64,000 nt of DNA from Escherichia coli (GTDB lineage Bacteria; Pseudomonadota; Gammaproteobacteria; Enterobacterales; Enterobacteriaceae). The number at the start of each line of letters is the position of its first letter. Position 1 is the stretch's first letter. This document shows, in pieces, positions 24,100 to 43,296 of this stretch. The position numbers and the translations under genes are program-made. The DNA lies in NCBI RefSeq assembly GCF_003334405.1, contig NZ_QOWM01000001.1. One strand, 5' to 3'. The notes under the pieces are model-generated. The model saw nothing but the letters and a program-made list of their open reading frames with translations. It made no database searches and was not told the DNA's origin.

Positions 24100-24392
24100 T
24101 GTGGAGACGCAATATTAAATATTGTCAACCTAAAGAAACTCCTAAAAACCATATTGAATGACACTTAATATAATTCTTAAAAATAGCCAATTGCCGAATT
24201 GTTACCTTGCCTGCTATTCCGTTAGCTGTAACACTTCCTCCTGCATTATTGGAGAGCCAATATTCAATTACCATAATGTCACCTTATATTCGGAAGTTAA
24301 TTTCCGCAATAACCCTTTCTCATCAACAATTGTATGCAGAGAGGGTTTGAAAAATTAAGCTAAATCAGTGTATTGGTAGCTAAAAAGCCAGG

Positions 24393-24404
24393 GGCGGTAG
24401 CGTG
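24393..24404 (+). promoter_or_regulatory. ops element (RfaH recruitment) within a JUMPstart sequence in the wza leader
   Basis: Exact GGCGGTAGCGTG within cagtgtattggtagctaaaaagccaggggcggtagcgtg, about 180 nt upstream of wza. Confidence 0.85.
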
Positions 24405-28336: not shown

Positions 28337-28364
28337 CGACGCCTGCATTCGCACCGCCCCGTAG

Positions 28365-28394
28365 GCCGGATAAGCCGCTCACGCCGCATCCGGC
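28365..28394. repeat. REP palindromic element between wzc and wcaA
   Basis: GCCGGATAAGCCGCTCACGCCGCATCCGGC inverted repeat. Confidence 0.65.
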
Positions 28395-35602: not shown

Positions 35603-36084
35603 TGATGTTTTTACGTCAGGAAGACTTTGCCACGGTAGTGCGCTCCACCCCGCTTGTCTCTCTCGACTTTATTGTCGAGAACAGTCGCGGCGAGTTTCTG
35701 CTTGGCAAAAGAACCAACCGCCCGGCGCAGGGTTACTGGTTTGTGCCGGGAGGGCGCGTGCAGAAAGACGAAACGCTGGAAGCCGCATTTGAGCGGCTGA
35801 CGATGGCGGAACTGGGGCTGCGTCTGCCGATAACAGCAGGCCAGTTTTACGGTGTCTGGCAGCACTTTTATGACGATAACTTCTCCGGCACGGATTTCAC
35901 CACTCACTATGTGGTGCTCGGTTTTCGCTTCAGAGTAGCGGAAGAAGAGCTGTTACTGCCGGATGAGCAGCATGACGATTACCGCTGGCTGACGCCGGAC
36001 GCACTGCTCGCCAGTGACAATGTTCACGCTAACAGCCGCGCCTATTTTCTCGCTGAGAAGCGTGCCGGAGTACCCGGATTATGA
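35602..36084 (+). CDS. gmm: GDP-mannose mannosyl hydrolase (Nudix)
   Basis: 160-aa ORF (start may be the second ATG at 35605, MFLRQ...); Nudix-like region. Confidence 0.85.
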
Positions 36085-37304
36085 AAATACTGGTCTACGG
36101 CATTAACTACTCGCCGGAGTTAACCGGCATCGGCAAATACACCGGCGAGATGGTGGAATGGCTGGCGGCACAAGGTCATGAGGTGCGGGTCATTACCGCA
36201 CCGCCTTACTACCCGCAGTGGCAGGTGGGCGAGAACTATTCCGCCTGGCGGTACAAACGGGAAGAGGGGGCCGCCACGGTGTGGCGCTGCCCGCTGTACG
36301 TGCCAAAACAGCCGAGCACCCTGAAACGCCTGTTGCATCTCGGCAGTTTTGCCGTCAGCAGTTTTTTCCCGTTGATGGCGCAACGTCGCTGGAAGCCGGA
36401 TCGCATTATCGGCGTAGTGCCAACGCTGTTTTGCACGCCGGGAATGCGCCTGCTGGCGAAACTTTCTGGTGCGCGCACGGTGCTGCATATTCAGGATTAC
36501 GAAGTGGACGCCATGCTGGGGCTGGGCCTTGCCGGAAAAGGCAAAGGCGGCAAAGTGGCACAGCTGGCGACGGCGTTCGAACGTAGCGGACTGCATAACG
36601 TCGATAACGTCTCCACGATTTCGCGTTCGATGATGAATAAAGCCATCGAAAAAGGCGTGGCAGCGGAAAACGTCATCTTCTTCCCCAATTGGTCGGAAAT
36701 CGCCCGTTTTCAATATGTTGCAGACGCCGATGTTGATGCCCTTCGTAACCAGCTTGGCCTGCCGGATAACAAAAAAATCATTCTTTACTCCGGCAATATT
36801 GGTGAAAAGCAGGGGCTGGAAAACGTTATTGAAGCTGCCGAACGCCTGCGTGATGAACCACTGATTTTTGCCATTGTCGGGCAGGGCGGCGGCAAAGCGC
36901 GGCTGGAAAAAATGGCGCAGCAGCGTGGACTGCGCAACATGCAATTTTTCCCGCTGCAATCGTATGACGCTTTACCCGCACTGCTGAAGATGGGCGATTG
37001 CCATCTGGTGGTGCAAAAACGCGGCGCGGCAGATGCCGTATTGCCGTCGAAACTGACCAATATTCTGGCAGTAGGCGGTAACGCAGTGATTACCGCAGAA
37101 GCCCACACAGAACTGGGGCAGCTTTGCGAAATCTTTCCGGGCATTGCGGTTTGCGTTGAACCGGAATCGGTCGAGGCGCTGGTGGCGGGGATTCGTCAGG
37201 CGCTCCTGCTGCCCAAACACAACACGGTGGCACGTGAATATGCCGAACGCACGCTCGATAAAGAGAACGTGTTACGTCAATTTATAAATGATATTCGGGG
37301 ATAA
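36081..37304 (+). CDS. wcaI: Colanic acid glycosyltransferase WcaI (GT4)
   Basis: 407-aa ORF; 4-nt overlap with gmm; GT-B family features. Confidence 0.9.
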
Positions 37305-37306
37305 TT

Positions 37307-38743
37307 ATGGCGCAGTCGAAACTCTATCCAGTTGTGATGGCAGGTGGCTCCGGTAGCCGCTTATGGCCGCTTTCCCGCGTACTTTACCCCAAGCAGTTTT
37401 TATGCCTGAAAGGCGATCTCACCATGCTGCAAACCACCATCTGCCGCCTGAACGGCGTGGAGTGCGAAAGCCCGGTGGTGATTTGCAATGAGCAGCACCG
37501 CTTTATTGTCGCGGAACAGCTGCGTCAACTGAACAAACTCACCGAGAACATTATTCTCGAACCTGCAGGGCGTAACACTGCACCTGCCATTGCGCTGGCG
37601 GCGCTGGCGGCAAAACGTCATAGCCCGGAGATCGACCCGTTAATGCTGGTATTGGCGGCGGATCATGTGATTGCCGATGAAGACGCGTTCCGTGCCGCCG
37701 TGCGTAATGCCATGCCGTATGCCGAAGCGGGCAAGCTGGTGACCTTCGGCATTGTGCCGGATCTACCTGAAACCGGATATGGCTATATTCGTCGCGGTGA
37801 AGTATCTGCGGGTGAGCAGGATACGGTGGCCTTTGAAATGGCGCAGTTTGTCGAAAAACCGAATCTGGAAACCGCCCAGGCCTATGTGGCAAGCGGCGAA
37901 TATTACTGGAACAGCGGCATGTTCCTGTTCCGCGCCGGACGCTATCTCGAAGAACTGAAAAAATATCGCCCGGATATTCTCGACGCCTGTGAACAAGCGA
38001 TGAGCGCCGTCGATCCGGATCTCGATTTTATTCGCGTGGATGAAGAAGCGTTTCTGGCCTGCCCGGAAGAGTCGGTGGATTACGCGGTCATGGAACGTAC
38101 GGCAGATGCCGTTGTGGTGCCGATGGATGCGGGCTGGAGCGATGTCGGTTCCTGGTCTTCATTATGGGAGATCAGCGCCCACACCGCCGAGGGCAACGTT
38201 TGCCACGGCGATGTGATTAATCACAAAACTGAAAACAGCTATGTGTATGCCGAATCTGGCCTGGTCACCACCGTCGGGGTGAAAGATCTGGTGGTGGTGC
38301 AGACCAAAGATGCGGTGCTGATTGCAGACCGTAACGCGGTACAGGATGTGAAAAAAGTGGTCGAGCAGATCAAAGCCGAAGGTCGCCATGAGCATCGGGT
38401 GCATCGCGAAGTGTATCGCCCGTGGGGCAAATATGACTCTATTGACGCGGGCGACCGCTATCAGGTGAAACGCATCACCGTGAAACCGGGCGAGGGCTTG
38501 TCGGTACAGATGCACCATCACCGCGCGGAACACTGGGTGGTTGTCGCAGGAACGGCAAAAGTCACTATTGACGGTGATATCAAACTGCTTGGTGAAAACG
38601 AGTCCATTTATATTCCGCTGGGGGCGACGCACTGCCTGGAAAACCCGGGGAAAATTCCGCTCGATTTAATTGAAGTGCGCTCCGGGTCTTACCTCGAAGA
38701 GGATGATGTGGTGCGCTTCGCGGATCGCTACGGACGGGTATAG
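37307..38743 (+). CDS. cpsB: Mannose-1-phosphate guanylyltransferase (colanic acid copy)
   Basis: 478-aa ORF; N-terminal nucleotidyltransferase motif [16 protein letters not shown]-terminal cupin. Confidence 0.95.
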
Positions 38744-38844
38744 CAGTTGAATAATCAACCGGAATAAATCTCCGGCAAATAACGACAAAAACAAAATTGG
38801 CCGTTTCGGTCAGGGCCAACTATTGCCTGAAAAAGGGTAACGAC

Positions 38845-40215
38845 ATGAAAAAATTAACCTGCTTTAAAGCCTACGATATTCGCGGGAAATTAGGCGAAGA
38901 ACTGAATGAAGATATTGCCTGGCGTATTGGTCGCGCCTATGGCGAATTTCTTAAACCGAAAACCATTGTTTTAGGCGGTGATGTCCGCCTCACCAGCGAA
39001 ACCTTAAAACTGGCGCTGGCAAAAGGTTTACAGGATGCGGGCGTCGATGTGCTGGATATTGGCATGTCCGGCACCGAAGAGATCTATTTCGCCACGTTCC
39101 ATCTCAGCGTGGATGGCGGCATTGAAGTTACCGCCAGCCATAACCCGATGGATTACAACGGCATGAAGCTGGTGCGCGAAGGGGCTCGCCCGATCAGCGG
39201 CGATACCGGACTGCGCGACGTCCAGCGTCTGGCAGAAGCCAATGACTTCCCTCCTGTCGATGAAACCAAACGCGGTCGCTATCAGCAAATCAATCTGCGT
39301 GACGCTTACGTTGATCACCTGTTCGGTTATATCAACGTCAAAAACCTCACGCCGCTCAAGCTGGTGATCAACTCCGGGAACGGCGCGGCGGGGCCGGTGG
39401 TGGACGCCATTGAAGCTCGCTTTAAAGCCCTCGGCGCACCCGTAGAATTGATCAAAGTGCACAACACGCCCGACGGGAATTTCCCCAACGGTATTCCTAA
39501 CCCGCTACTGCCGGAATGTCGCGACGACACCCGCAATGCGGTCATCAAACACGGCGCAGATATGGGCATTGCCTTTGATGGCGATTTTGACCGCTGTTTC
39601 CTGTTTGACGAAAAAGGGCAGTTTATTGAGGGCTATTACATTGTCGGCCTGCTGGCAGAAGCGTTCCTCGAAAAAAATCCCGGCGCGAAGATCATCCACG
39701 ATCCACGTCTCTCCTGGAACACCGTTGATGTGGTGACGGCCGCGGGCGGCACGCCGGTGATGTCGAAAACCGGACACGCCTTTATTAAAGAACGTATGCG
39801 CAAGGAAGACGCCATCTACGGTGGCGAAATGAGCGCTCACCATTACTTCCGCGATTTCGCTTACTGTGACAGCGGCATGATCCCGTGGCTGCTGGTGGCC
39901 GAACTGGTGTGCCTGAAAGGAAAAACGCTGGGCGAACTGGTGCGCGACCGGATGGCAGCGTTTCCGGCAAGCGGTGAGATCAACAGCAAACTGGCGCAAC
40001 CCGTTGAGGCGATTAACCGCGTCGAACAGCATTTTAGCCGTGAGGCGCTGGCGGTGGATCGTACCGATGGCATCAGTATGACCTTTGCCGACTGGCGTTT
40101 TAACCTGCGCTCCTCCAACACCGAACCGGTGGTGCGGTTGAATGTGGAATCGCGCGGTGATGTGCCGCTGATGGAAGCGCGAACGCGAACTCTGCTGACG
40201 TTGCTGAACGAGTAA
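38845..40215 (+). CDS. cpsG: Phosphomannomutase (colanic acid copy)
   Basis: ORF track starts upstream; trimmed to ATG 38845 ([14 protein letters not shown]), 456 aa; phosphoserine loop TASHNP. Confidence 0.95.
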
Positions 40216-40224
40216 TGTCATTAC

Positions 40225-40330
40225 TTTCCCCCTCACCCTGACGCTCTACTGCCTGCGAAGAGAAGTGAGCACGGAACTTTCTTCTCCCCCTCGCCCCTTT
40301 GGGGAGAGGGCCGGGGTGAGGGGCGAGGCG
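40225..40330. repeat. Nested GC-rich inverted-repeat element in the cpsG-wcaJ intergenic region
   Basis: CCCTCACCC (40229-40237) pairs with GGGTGAGGG (40314-40322); CCTCGCCCC (40289-40297) pairs with GGGGCGAGG (40320-40328); inner CCCCTTTGGGG hairpin. Confidence 0.6.
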
Positions 40331-40350
40331 ACAATAGAACAGGAACAACG

Positions 40351-41745
40351 ATGACAAATCTAAAAAAACGCGAGCGAGCGAAAACCAATGCATCGTTAAT
40401 CTCTATGGTGCAACGCTTTTCAGATATCACCATCATGTTTGCCGGGCTATGGCTGGTTTGCGAAGTCAGCGGACTGTCATTCCTCTACATGCACCTGTTG
40501 GTGGCGCTGATTACGCTGGTGGTGTTCCAGATGCTGGGCGGCATCACCGATTTTTATCGCTCATGGCGAGGTGTTCGGGCAGCGACAGAATTTGCCCTGT
40601 TGCTACAAAACTGGACGTTAAGCGTGATTTTCAGCGCCGGACTGGTGGCGTTTAACAATGATTTCGACACGCAACTGAAAATCTGGCTGGCGTGGTATGG
40701 GCTGACCAGCATCGGACTGGTGGTTTGCCGTTCATGTATTCGCATTGGGGCGGGCTGGCTGCGTAATCATGGCTATAACAAGCGCATGGTCGCGGTGGCG
40801 GGGGATTTAGCCGCTGGACAAATGCTGATGGAGAGCTTCCGTAATCAGCCGTGGTTAGGGTTTGAAGTGGTGGGCGTTTACCACGACCCGAAACCGGGTG
40901 GCGTTTCTAACGACTGGGCGGGCAATCTGCAACAGCTGGTCGAGGATGCGAAAGCGGGCAAGATTCATAACGTCTATATCGCGATGCAAATGTGCGACGG
41001 CGCGCGAGTGAAAAAACTGGTCCATCAATTGGCGGACACCACCTGTTCGGTGCTGCTGATCCCCGATGTCTTTACTTTCAACATTCTCCATTCACGTCTC
41101 GAAGAGATGAACGGCGTTCCGGTGGTGCCGCTTTACGATACGCCGCTTTCCGGGGTTAACCGCCTGATAAAACGTGCGGAAGACATTGTGCTGGCGACGC
41201 TTATCCTGCTGCTGATCTCCCCGGTGCTGTGCTGCATTGCGCTGGCGGTGAAACTCAGTTCACCTGGGCCGGTTATTTTCCGCCAGACTCGCTACGGTAT
41301 GGATGGCAAGCCGATCAAAGTGTGGAAGTTCCGTTCCATGAAAGTGATGGAGAACGACAAAGTGGTGACCCAGGCGACGCAGAACGATCCGCGCGTCACT
41401 AAAGTGGGGAACTTTCTGCGCCGCACCTCGCTGGATGAATTGCCGCAGTTTATCAATGTGCTGACTGGCGGGATGTCGATTGTCGGGCCACGTCCGCACG
41501 CGGTGGCGCATAACGAACAGTATCGCCAGCTCATTGAAGGCTACATGCTGCGCCATAAAGTGAAACCGGGCATTACCGGCTGGGCGCAGATTAATGGCTG
41601 GCGCGGCGAAACCGACACGCTGGAGAAAATGGAAAAACGCGTCGAGTTCGACCTTGAGTACATCCGCGAGTGGAGCGTCTGGTTCGATATCAAAATCGTT
41701 TTCCTGACGGTATTCAAAGGCTTCGTTAACAAAGCGGCATATTGA
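40351..41745 (+). CDS. wcaJ: Undecaprenyl-phosphate glucose phosphotransferase (initiating transferase)
   Basis: 464-aa ORF; N-terminal TM helices and C-terminal sugar-transferase domain (PGITGWAQINGWRGET). Confidence 0.95.
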   Translation: MTNLKKRERAKTNASLISMVQRFSDITIMFAGLWLVCEVSGLSFLYMHLLVALITLVVFQMLGGITDFYRSWRGVRAATEFALLLQNWTLSVIFSAGLVAFNNDFDTQLKIWLAWYGLTSIGLVVCRSCIRIGAGWLRNHGYNKRMVAVAGDLAAGQMLMESFRNQPWLGFEVVGVYHDPKPGGVSNDWAGNLQQLVEDAKAGKIHNVYIAMQMCDGARVKKLVHQLADTTCSVLLIPDVFTFNILHSRLEEMNGVPVVPLYDTPLSGVNRLIKRAEDIVLATLILLLISPVLCCIALAVKLSSPGPVIFRQTRYGMDGKPIKVWKFRSMKVMENDKVVTQATQNDPRVTKVGNFLRRTSLDELPQFINVLTGGMSIVGPRPHAVAHNEQYRQLIEGYMLRHKVKPGITGWAQINGWRGETDTLEKMEKRVEFDLEYIREWSVWFDIKIVFLTVFKGFVNKAAY

Positions 41746-41746
41746 T

Positions 41747-43225
41747 ATGAGCTTACGTGAAAAAACCATCAGCGGCGCGAAGTGGTCGGCGATTGCCACG
41801 GTGAGCATCATCGGCCTCGGGCTGGTGCAGATGACCGTGCTGGCGCGGATTATCGACAACCACCAGTTCGGCCTGCTTACCGTGTCGCTGGTGATTATCG
41901 CGCTGGCAGATACGCTTTCTGACTTCGGTATCGCTAACTCCATTATTCAGCGAAAAGAAATCAGTCACCTTGAACTCACCACGTTGTACTGGCTGAACGT
42001 CGGGCTGGGGATCGTGGTGTGCGTGGCGGTGTTTTTGTTGAGTGATGCCATTGGCGACATGCTGAATAACCCGGACCTGGCACCGTTGATTAAAACATTG
42101 TCGCTGGCGTTTGTGGTGATCCCCCACGGGCAACAGTTCCGCGCGTTGATGCAAAAAGAGCTGGAGTTCAACAAAATCGGCATGATCGAAACCAGCGCGG
42201 TGCTGGCGGGCTTTACTTTTACGGTGGTTAGCGCCCATTTCTGGCCGCTGGCGATGACCGCGATCCTCGGTTATCTGGTCAATAGTGCGGTAAGAACGCT
42301 GCTGTTTGGCTACTTTGGTCGAAAAATTTATCGCCCCGGTCTGCATTTCTCGCTGGCATCGGTGGCACCAAACTTACGCTTTGGTGCCTGGCTGACGGCG
42401 GACAGCATCATCAACTATCTCAACACCAACCTTTCAACGCTGGTGCTGGCGCGTATTCTCGGCGCGGGCGTGGCAGGGGGATACAACCTGGCGTACAACG
42501 TGGCCGTTGTGCCACCGATGAAGCTGAACCCAATCATCACCCGCGTGTTGTTTCCGGCATTCGCCAAAATTCAGGATGACACCGAAAAGCTGCGCGTCAA
42601 CTTCTACAAGCTGCTGTCGGTAGTGGGGATTATCAACTTTCCGGCGCTGCTCGGGCTGATGGTGGTGTCAAATAACTTTGTACCGCTGGTATTTGGCGAA
42701 AAGTGGAACAGCATTATTCCGGTGCTGCAATTGCTGTGTGTGGTGGGGCTACTGCGCTCCGTGGGTAACCCGATTGGTTCGCTGCTGATGGCGAAAGCGC
42801 GGGTCGATATCAGCTTTAAATTCAACGTATTCAAAACCTTTCTGTTTATTCCGGCGATTGTTATTGGTGGGCAGATGGCGGGCGCAATCGGCGTCACGCT
42901 CGGCTTCCTGCTGGTGCAGATTATCAACACCATTCTGAGTTACTTCGTGATGATTAAACCGGTGCTCGGTTCCAGTTATCGCCAGTACATCCTGAGTTTA
43001 TGGCTGCCGTTTTATCTCTCGCTGCCGACGCTGGCGGTCAGTTATGCGCTGGGCATTGTACTGAAAGGGCAACTGGCGCTGGGGATGCTGCTGGCGGTGC
43101 AAATAGCCGCGGGCGTGCTGGCGTTTGTGGTGATGATTGTGCTGTCGCGCCATCCGCTGATGGTGGAAGTGAAGCGTCAGTTTTGTCGCAGCGAAAAAAT
43201 GAAAATGCTTTTACGGGCGGGGTGA
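41747..43225 (+). CDS. wzxC: Colanic acid flippase WzxC
   Basis: 492-aa polytopic membrane ORF immediately after wcaJ. Confidence 0.9.
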   Translation: MSLREKTISGAKWSAIATVSIIGLGLVQMTVLARIIDNHQFGLLTVSLVIIALADTLSDFGIANSIIQRKEISHLELTTLYWLNVGLGIVVCVAVFLLSDAIGDMLNNPDLAPLIKTLSLAFVVIPHGQQFRALMQKELEFNKIGMIETSAVLAGFTFTVVSAHFWPLAMTAILGYLVNSAVRTLLFGYFGRKIYRPGLHFSLASVAPNLRFGAWLTADSIINYLNTNLSTLVLARILGAGVAGGYNLAYNVAVVPPMKLNPIITRVLFPAFAKIQDDTEKLRVNFYKLLSVVGIINFPALLGLMVVSNNFVPLVFGEKWNSIIPVLQLLCVVGLLRSVGNPIGSLLMAKARVDISFKFNVFKTFLFIPAIVIGGQMAGAIGVTLGFLLVQIINTILSYFVMIKPVLGSSYRQYILSLWLPFYLSLPTLAVSYALGIVLKGQLALGMLLAVQIAAGVLAFVVMIVLSRHPLMVEVKRQFCRSEKMKMLLRAG

Positions 43226-43296
43226 ATGGTTGTTTTAGGCTACGGCAATAAAAACAATAACATAACCTCACCTGGCATCAAATTTATGAGGAAAAA

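Follow-up and report, generated by a model that had tools for sequence, protein, structure and literature searches.

An inverted-repeat element between cpsG and wcaJ in the colanic acid operon of Escherichia coli almost certainly belongs to the BoxC/PIT/TMECO family

What is the GC-rich palindromic block that separates cpsG from wcaJ in a subset of E. coli strains, and does it affect the transcript in which it lies? In the window, by which we mean the whole stretch of 64,000 nucleotides of E. coli DNA analysed here, the colanic acid (cps) operon is carried by the plus strand, and cpsG is followed by a gap of 135 bp and then by wcaJ (Table 1). The gap is 100% identical in E. coli strain S43, in which cpsG and wcaJ are annotated on either side, and the RefSeq annotation places no feature under the repeat. 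The first-pass annotation of this DNA had described several interlocking GC-rich inverted repeats in the gap and proposed that they form a large stable structure in the polycistronic cps mRNA, possibly acting as an mRNA stabiliser or a processing site. A repeat finder recovered every repeat that had been named: a 19-nt imperfect inverted repeat, CCCCTCACCC/GGGTGAGGGG, with arms at 40229-40247 and 40305-40323 (84% complementary); a perfect 10-nt inverted repeat, CCTCGCCCCT/AGGGGCGAGG, joining 40289-40298 with 40319-40328 (10/10); the shorter pair TCTCCCC/GGGGAGA; and the palindrome CCCCTTTGGGG at 40294-40304. The string GGGTGAGGG occurred twice in the window, against 0.19 occurrences expected.

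Folding of the gap as sense-strand RNA gave a predicted minimum free energy (MFE) of -58.5 kcal/mol, compared to -44.4 +/- 4.0 kcal/mol for dinucleotide-preserving shuffles (z = -3.51; 0/200 shuffles as stable). This confirmed that the predicted structure exceeds chance and bore out, at the level of a predicted fold, the large stable structure proposed for the polycistronic cps transcript. The antisense strand, folded as RNA, reached z = -1.78. In the predicted sense RNA, positions 40229-40240 pair with 40312-40323 in an outer helix of 12 bp, inside which lie two hairpins; both the Shine-Dalgarno sequence and the ATG of wcaJ are left unpaired. The word interlocking was also apt, as the G-rich 3' part can pair with either the left arm or the neighbouring C-block, and the segment 40269-40328 folds differently on its own than within the full gap. 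These alternative pairings are what a triplex motif produces, its single C-block having a choice between two G-blocks as pairing partners.

This motif identifies the element, with near certainty as far as sequence comparison goes, as a copy of the BoxC/PIT/TMECO repeat. BoxC is a GC-rich 56-bp repeat of E. coli (PMC2267715); the name PIT (potential intrastrand triplex) element was subsequently given to it, followed by TMECO (Holder et al. 2015, PMC4666352; earlier work cited therein includes Bergler 1992, Bachellier 1996, and Hoyne and Maher 2000/2002). TMECO is defined by the pattern 5'-CCCTCNCCC-N3-6-GGGNGAGGG-N3-GGGNGAGGG-3' (Holder et al. 2015, PMC4666352). The window held one exact match to this pattern, at 40288-40322 on the plus strand, against 0.00 expected from shuffles, and no further copy was detected in the window even when three mismatches were allowed. 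The match is composed of a C-block (40288-40296), a loop (40297-40301), a first G-block (40302-40310), the loop CCG (40311-40313) and a second G-block (40314-40322), and is followed by a G at 40323. Together, these 36 nt (CCCTCGCCCCTTTGGGGAGAGGGCCGGGGTGAGGGG) are identical at 36/36 positions to MG1655 TMECO no. 3, listed as 'type B mm' in Table 1 of Holder et al. 2015. The latter is the K-12 copy upstream of yagE, and alignment extended its identity with the window copy to a run of 40 nt.

Consistent with a dispersed repeat, a BLAST search of 5426 complete E. coli genomes with the gap sequence placed a core of 45-56 bp (40269-40324) at 7250 sites, distributed over 3454 of the genomes, at 85-96% identity, and none of the copies lay under an annotated feature among the 30 records listed. 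Those inspected individually, in the ISEc19-yagE, araA-araD and lldD-trmL gaps, shared 36-40 identical nt with the window copy. The intercistronic gap between araA and araD carries a single type B copy adjoining a BIME, and location within an operon is thus nothing exceptional for BoxC/TMECO. Judged by these matches, the structure is not specific to the cps operon; the element belongs to a known repeat family, has a core identical to that of a biophysically characterised copy, and is real but ordinary. The terms wcaJ, cpsG, manB and colanic are absent from the supplementary text (two files) of Holder et al. 2015, our literature searches found no paper on a wcaJ-cpsG stem-loop or an intercistronic hairpin of the colanic acid operon, and a search on TMECO brought up no later study of the motif, the string being otherwise used in an unrelated sense.

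The left half of the element is best explained as the decayed partner of the intact copy. In a local alignment with the reverse-complemented type A TMECO, segment 40229-40265 scored 33.5, compared to 14.9 +/- 2.9 for shuffles (0/2000 as high), and 18 of its first 21 nt were identical. Intact antisense copies occur in the same gap of Kluyvera, Enterobacter, Lelliottia and Buttiauxella, and the segment matches them in register, one block after another; the lldD-trmL gap of K-12 holds a type A(-)/type B(+) pair with which the segment can likewise be aligned. On its own strand, the loop of the antisense copy reads TCA, compared to TTA in type A, and the CCG loop of the sense copy is that of type B. 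Paired TMECO sites always consist of one type A and one type B copy in inverted orientation (Holder et al. 2015, PMC4666352). The window element fits this rule as an inverted pair of an intact type B sense copy and a decayed, type-A-like antisense copy; the assignment of the left half as a decayed TMECO is based on the 18/21 match together with the cross-genus alignment. Between the two copies, the spacer (40260-40286) showed partial homology to the spacer of the K-12 copy upstream of yagE. As a dispersed repeat in its own right, the left half (40216-40272) was rejected, its matches being confined to 509 E. coli genomes, with one place each and at this locus only.

Table 1 Features of the cpsG-wcaJ gap and its borders (window coordinates).
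Feature	Position	Strand	Basis
cpsG stop codon TAA	40213-40215	+	Sequence; RefSeq annotation of strain S43, which is identical at this locus
cpsG-wcaJ intercistronic gap, 135 bp, 'long allele'	40216-40350	+	Sequence and S43 annotation
Degenerate inverted BoxC/TMECO copy, type-A-like, CCCCTCACCC-TGA-CGCTCTAC...GAAGAGAAG; only outer block 40229-40238 intact	40229-40265	-	Local alignment
67-aa antisense ORF, judged spurious	40233-40436	-	ORF list; unconserved between alleles
Predicted spacer hairpin between the two BoxC copies (GAGAAG.GAG ... CUU.CUUCUC)	40260-40286	+	MFE structure
56-bp stretch matching dispersed copies	40269-40324	+	BLAST query positions 54-109; as long as a classical BoxC unit (56 bp)
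Intact TMECO/PIT motif, type B with one mismatch	40288-40323	+	Exact pattern match
Predicted 3' arm of the outer helix, pairs with 40229-40240 and closes the whole element	40312-40323	+	MFE and centroid structures
wcaJ Shine-Dalgarno AGGA and start codon ATG	40341-40344 (AGGA), 40351-40353 (ATG)	+	Unpaired in the predicted fold; conserved across species

The gap is length-polymorphic within E. coli. The long allele, i.e. the full 135 bp, was found by BLAST in 509 of the 5426 complete genomes (~9%), in one place each, so that ~90% of the genomes lack the BoxC copy at this site. Most other E. coli, including K-12 and O157, have a gap that is 81 bp shorter (54-55 bp) and contains only a plain 9-10-bp hairpin, CCCTTACCC/GGGTAAGGG (arms CCCTTACCCC-loop-GGGTAAGGGG), with a predicted fold of -17.1 kcal/mol. 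The flanks of the long and short alleles are identical until 3 nt past the cpsG stop codon and again from ~18 nt before the wcaJ ATG. Long alleles from seven diverse E. coli strains were 99% identical to each other, with single-base indels in the C and G runs and one pair-breaking change, and revealed no covariation signal within the long allele. In E. coli E69, we observed a decayed allele of 127 bp (L012 1374-1500), in which an 8-bp loss removes the third G-block and the left arm carries an A-to-C change, and which folded with a z of only -1.8; this allele shows the element eroding within the species. The best-matching complete E. coli genome was only 97.3% identical over window positions 36000-46000, even though the gap is 100% identical to that of S43; the strain analysed here therefore carries a divergent or mosaic allele of the cps region.

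Such variation is a known property of the family. TMECO loci were reported to be hypervariable, much more so than control intergenic regions, and a 'palindrome effect' was described at palindromic TMECO sites, where part of both copies is missing and a stable stem-loop is left (Holder et al. 2015, PMC4666352). The length polymorphism at cpsG-wcaJ matches this published behaviour. The long and short alleles would thus be related by expansion or collapse of the TMECO pair, in either direction, with the middle gained or lost and the outer arms still able to pair.

How might such an element act in the cps transcript? Two JUMPstart elements (RF01707) are present in the window, at 24366-24404 and 48526-48564 on the plus strand; the first presumably belongs to the 5' leader of the colanic acid operon, the second to that of the O-antigen cluster downstream. 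These are the only two JUMPstarts in the window, and the gap element lies in the operon led by the one at 24366. A promoter scan of the gap revealed no promoter-like site. Because the element lies inside the cps operon, with neither a promoter-like site nor a U-tract terminator, it would be co-transcribed into the polycistronic cps mRNA. There, it is predicted to form a long imperfect stem, with the 12-bp outer helix enclosing the two hairpins, and the model leaves the ribosome-binding site of wcaJ free. By analogy with REP elements, its likeliest effect, if any, would be that of a generic stem-loop slowing 3'-to-5' exonucleolytic decay of the upstream wza-cpsG segment. On the DNA level, it would constitute a locally unstable, non-B-prone and indel-prone palindrome.

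Previous functional work on the family favours such a modest role. As summarised by Holder et al. 2015 (PMC4666352), PIT elements had neither promoter nor terminator activity, did not affect RNA polymerase or reverse transcriptase, and did not block replication in vivo; the tests listed in that summary include no mRNA-decay assay. Based on these negative results, together with a triplex that was shown in vitro but not in vivo, a generic and passive mechanism is the most defensible one, and we assign a probability of about 0.85 to the reading that the element is a generic, passive intercistronic stem-loop and not a dedicated regulatory device.

We fetched 80 species-representative genomes with a WcaJ probe and extracted the cpsG-wcaJ spacer from 73 of them. 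The length of these orthologous gaps ranged from 39 to 357 bp. Compared to shuffles, they folded with a median z of -3.07, and 82% were below -2 and 59% below -3, with species counted without phylogenetic correction. Strict TMECO motifs were present in 16 gaps, degenerate ones in seven, and simple C-block/G-block hairpins in 17; the rest carried other hairpins, some of them unrelated in sequence. At the same site, the gaps (L012-L091, e.g. L026, L031, L036, L061) form a graded series that comprises simple stems of 9-11 bp, a nested palindromic TMECO (Enterobacter kpr-6, 81 bp), inverted pairs around a spacer (E. cloacae, Buttiauxella, Kluyvera), and forms with added tandem repeats (RIT714, 247 bp; UBA5654, 357 bp). 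Because some stable hairpin is found at this position in most Enterobacteriaceae examined, a generic stem-loop function in the mRNA is plausible on the basis of the predicted folds; the mRNA stabiliser or processing role suggested by the first-pass annotation would be a candidate role, against which the negative PIT tests can be held.

The short hairpin shared by Escherichia, Citrobacter and Salmonella was examined for signs of maintained pairing. In its stem, 97.3% of the cells pair, compared to 46-65% in slid controls, and two positions carry compensatory double changes, from C-G to U-A in five sequences and from A-U to G-C in seven. Across species, the sense strand was the more stable one in 50 cases versus 20 (Wilcoxon p = 5e-4) and G.U pairs numbered 207 on the sense versus 159 on the antisense strand (p = 0.036), both without phylogenetic correction; these values suggest a small strand bias toward the sense RNA.

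Such observations raise the question of whether an operon-specific RNA stem-loop upstream of wcaJ has been under selection, either protecting 3' ends or serving as a processing site, and thereby setting the ratio of the wza...cpsBG to the wcaJ-wzxC... segment, with the BoxC pair being one of several interchangeable ways to supply the stem-loop. This is a tentative idea that we consider rather unlikely to be correct. It would account for gaps in 73 species that fold far better than shuffles even where the hairpins are unrelated to BoxC (C. freundii M-21, Mangrovibacter, Siccibacter), for the high pairing and the two compensatory positions of the short hairpin, for the sense-strand bias in stability and G.U pairs, and for the conserved wcaJ Shine-Dalgarno sequence and the conserved spacing to it; moreover, stem-loop control inside cps operons has a precedent after wzc, as cited in PMC2516531 and PMC3438125. 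However, the same repeat occurs at many unrelated loci, the element differs hugely in form and in size (39 to 357 bp) between species, and no significant hairpin was seen in a few of them (L035, L087, L059, L014). The cross-species statistics are uncorrected for phylogeny, and each of the two compensatory changes may represent a single event; in addition, template switching in quasi-palindromes can mimic compensation without selection, and palindromic repeats accumulate wherever intergenic space tolerates them. The lack of terminator activity in the PIT tests summarised by Holder et al. 2015 (PMC4666352) also speaks against a selected stem-loop. It is equally doubtful that an ancient, selected stem-loop precedes the gene for the initiating glycosyltransferase across Enterobacteriaceae and that BoxC/TMECO elements there represent successive remodellings of one hairpin; the corresponding order of events, from a simple stem via a nested palindrome and an inverted pair to tandem additions, is likewise improbable in our estimation.

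A further alternative is that the element acts as DNA, its G-rich sense strand folding, while the DNA is replicated or transcribed, into a cruciform or an intrastrand purine-motif triplex and thereby affecting genome stability or topology. An oligonucleotide of the 'type B mm' class, to which the window core belongs, indeed forms a stable triplex in vitro (Tm ~70 C, by NMR and CD), but the duplex wins in vitro when the complement is present, and in vivo DMS footprinting showed no triplex (Holder et al. 2015, PMC4666352). According to the same study, TMECO loci are more variable than control loci, in agreement with the length polymorphism of the cpsG-wcaJ locus itself, and with single-strand DNA parameters both strands of the gap folded better than shuffles (z = -2.3 and -2.1). 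Nevertheless, instability is a property and not necessarily a function, and the repeat is not known to have an adaptive function on the DNA level; we consider this explanation unlikely as well, and keep the passive RNA stem-loop as the preferred reading.

The comparison with REP/BIME families proposed by the first-pass annotation turned out negative: the REP consensus GCCGGATGCGGCGT...CGCCTTATCCGGCCTAC, searched with up to 3 mismatches, is absent from the gap and has its sole match in the window at 28361-28394, and the element in the gap is BoxC instead. An intrinsic terminator or attenuator was likewise rejected, as no T-run follows any stem of the element. The only terminator-like match, a weak stem with three GC pairs at 40196-40220, spans the cpsG stop codon and is at chance frequency (2 found versus 1.1 expected), and among the 73 orthologous gaps a T-rich tract after the stem was found in only three, with no U-tract in the other 70. 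The view that the gap holds a REP/BIME element, or a terminator or attenuator separating two transcription units, could draw on the intercistronic location, on the GC-rich palindrome, and on REP elements elsewhere in the operon (28361-28394 and the cpsB-cpsG gap of S43), but it is refuted at the sequence level by the missing REP consensus and T-run and is therefore highly improbable. Covariance models agreed with no known RNA family: a scan of the whole window at Rfam gathering thresholds returned no family in the gap, and an E-value scan of 39800-40800 gave best matches of 12-15 bits against a threshold of 40, all from eukaryotic families. Finally, a small protein gene on the minus strand is close to inconceivable, given that the ATG-initiated 67-aa ORF, which the first reading had already suspected to be an artefact, has its first 29 codons opposite the conserved 5' end of wcaJ, in antisense, then reads through the repeat in low complexity (PRPSPRPSPQRGEGE), and has 41, 43, 60, 67 or 68 aa depending on the allele, its end and the part encoded by the gap being unconserved in length and sequence.

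Several other structured elements were noticed in the window. An algC RNA motif (Rfam RF02929; 38791-38840, plus strand; 78 bits versus a gathering threshold of 33.8), a curated cis-regulatory motif in the same operon, lies a short way upstream of cpsG, in the cpsB-cpsG gap. This gap is also length-polymorphic (38744-38844 in the window versus L001 1438-1629 in S43), with ~91 extra bases in S43 that include a classical REP (GTCGGATGCGGCGTGAACGCCTTATCCGACCTAC) and are missing from the window. The REP element at 28361-28394, a minus-strand copy that departs from the consensus by one mismatch, falls within the cps operon and, from the gene order of the cluster, may sit in the wzc-wcaA gap, the site of a described stem-loop attenuator. 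On the minus strand, SIB RNA genes (Rfam RF00113, 138-150 bits) stand three in tandem at 7810-7952, 8138-8280 and 8467-8615. In type I toxin-antitoxin loci of the Ibs/Sib kind, SIB RNAs are the antitoxins.

The practical value of the identification lies in annotation. The repeat is unmarked in RefSeq and gives rise to a spurious ORF in six-frame ORF tracks, and it can now be recorded as an unannotated copy of a family that was described in the 1990s and re-characterised in 2015. If a selected hairpin did exist at this site, it would explain why a stable stem-loop lies just before wcaJ in nearly every Enterobacteriaceae species, it would provide BoxC/PIT elements, which are not known to have a function, with a testable one and with a first concrete RNA-level role, in differential stability or processing of the cps mRNA, and the gaps would represent a natural allele series recording growth and collapse of BoxC palindromic repeats. 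The family-wide persistence and remodelling of the hairpin at the cpsG-wcaJ site might be the only part that merits further work.

Among known systems, REP/BIME elements can act as intercistronic mRNA stabilisers, with malE-malF as the paradigm. The window element resembles them as a GC-rich, palindromic, interspersed repeat in an intercistronic spacer that could form a barrier to 3' exonucleases and stabilise the upstream mRNA, and differs from them in lacking the REP consensus. For BoxC, we are aware of neither a cognate transposase (RAYT) nor a demonstrated stabilising effect. A second point of reference, cited in PMC2516531 and PMC3438125, is a transcriptional attenuator of the stem-loop type that follows wzc in colanic acid and group 1 capsule operons. 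Both that attenuator and the window element are stem-loops inside a cps operon that could allow segment-specific expression; however, going by these citations, the attenuators lie at wzc-wcaA or wzc-wbaP and not at cpsG-wcaJ, and they are Rho-independent-like, whereas the window element has no U-tract.

The closest relatives are the catalogued BoxC/TMECO copies themselves. With these, the window element shares the 36-nt core, the order of a C-block followed by two G-blocks, the type B loop CCG, the intergenic location, the inverted A+B pair, the variability among strains and the collapse to a hairpin in other strains. In contrast to the catalogued copies, the antisense partner in the window has decayed so that only its outer block is intact, and the element forms part of a long operon, with a ribosome-binding site immediately downstream of it. 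The locus is also not among the 23 sites catalogued in MG1655, because K-12 carries the short allele.
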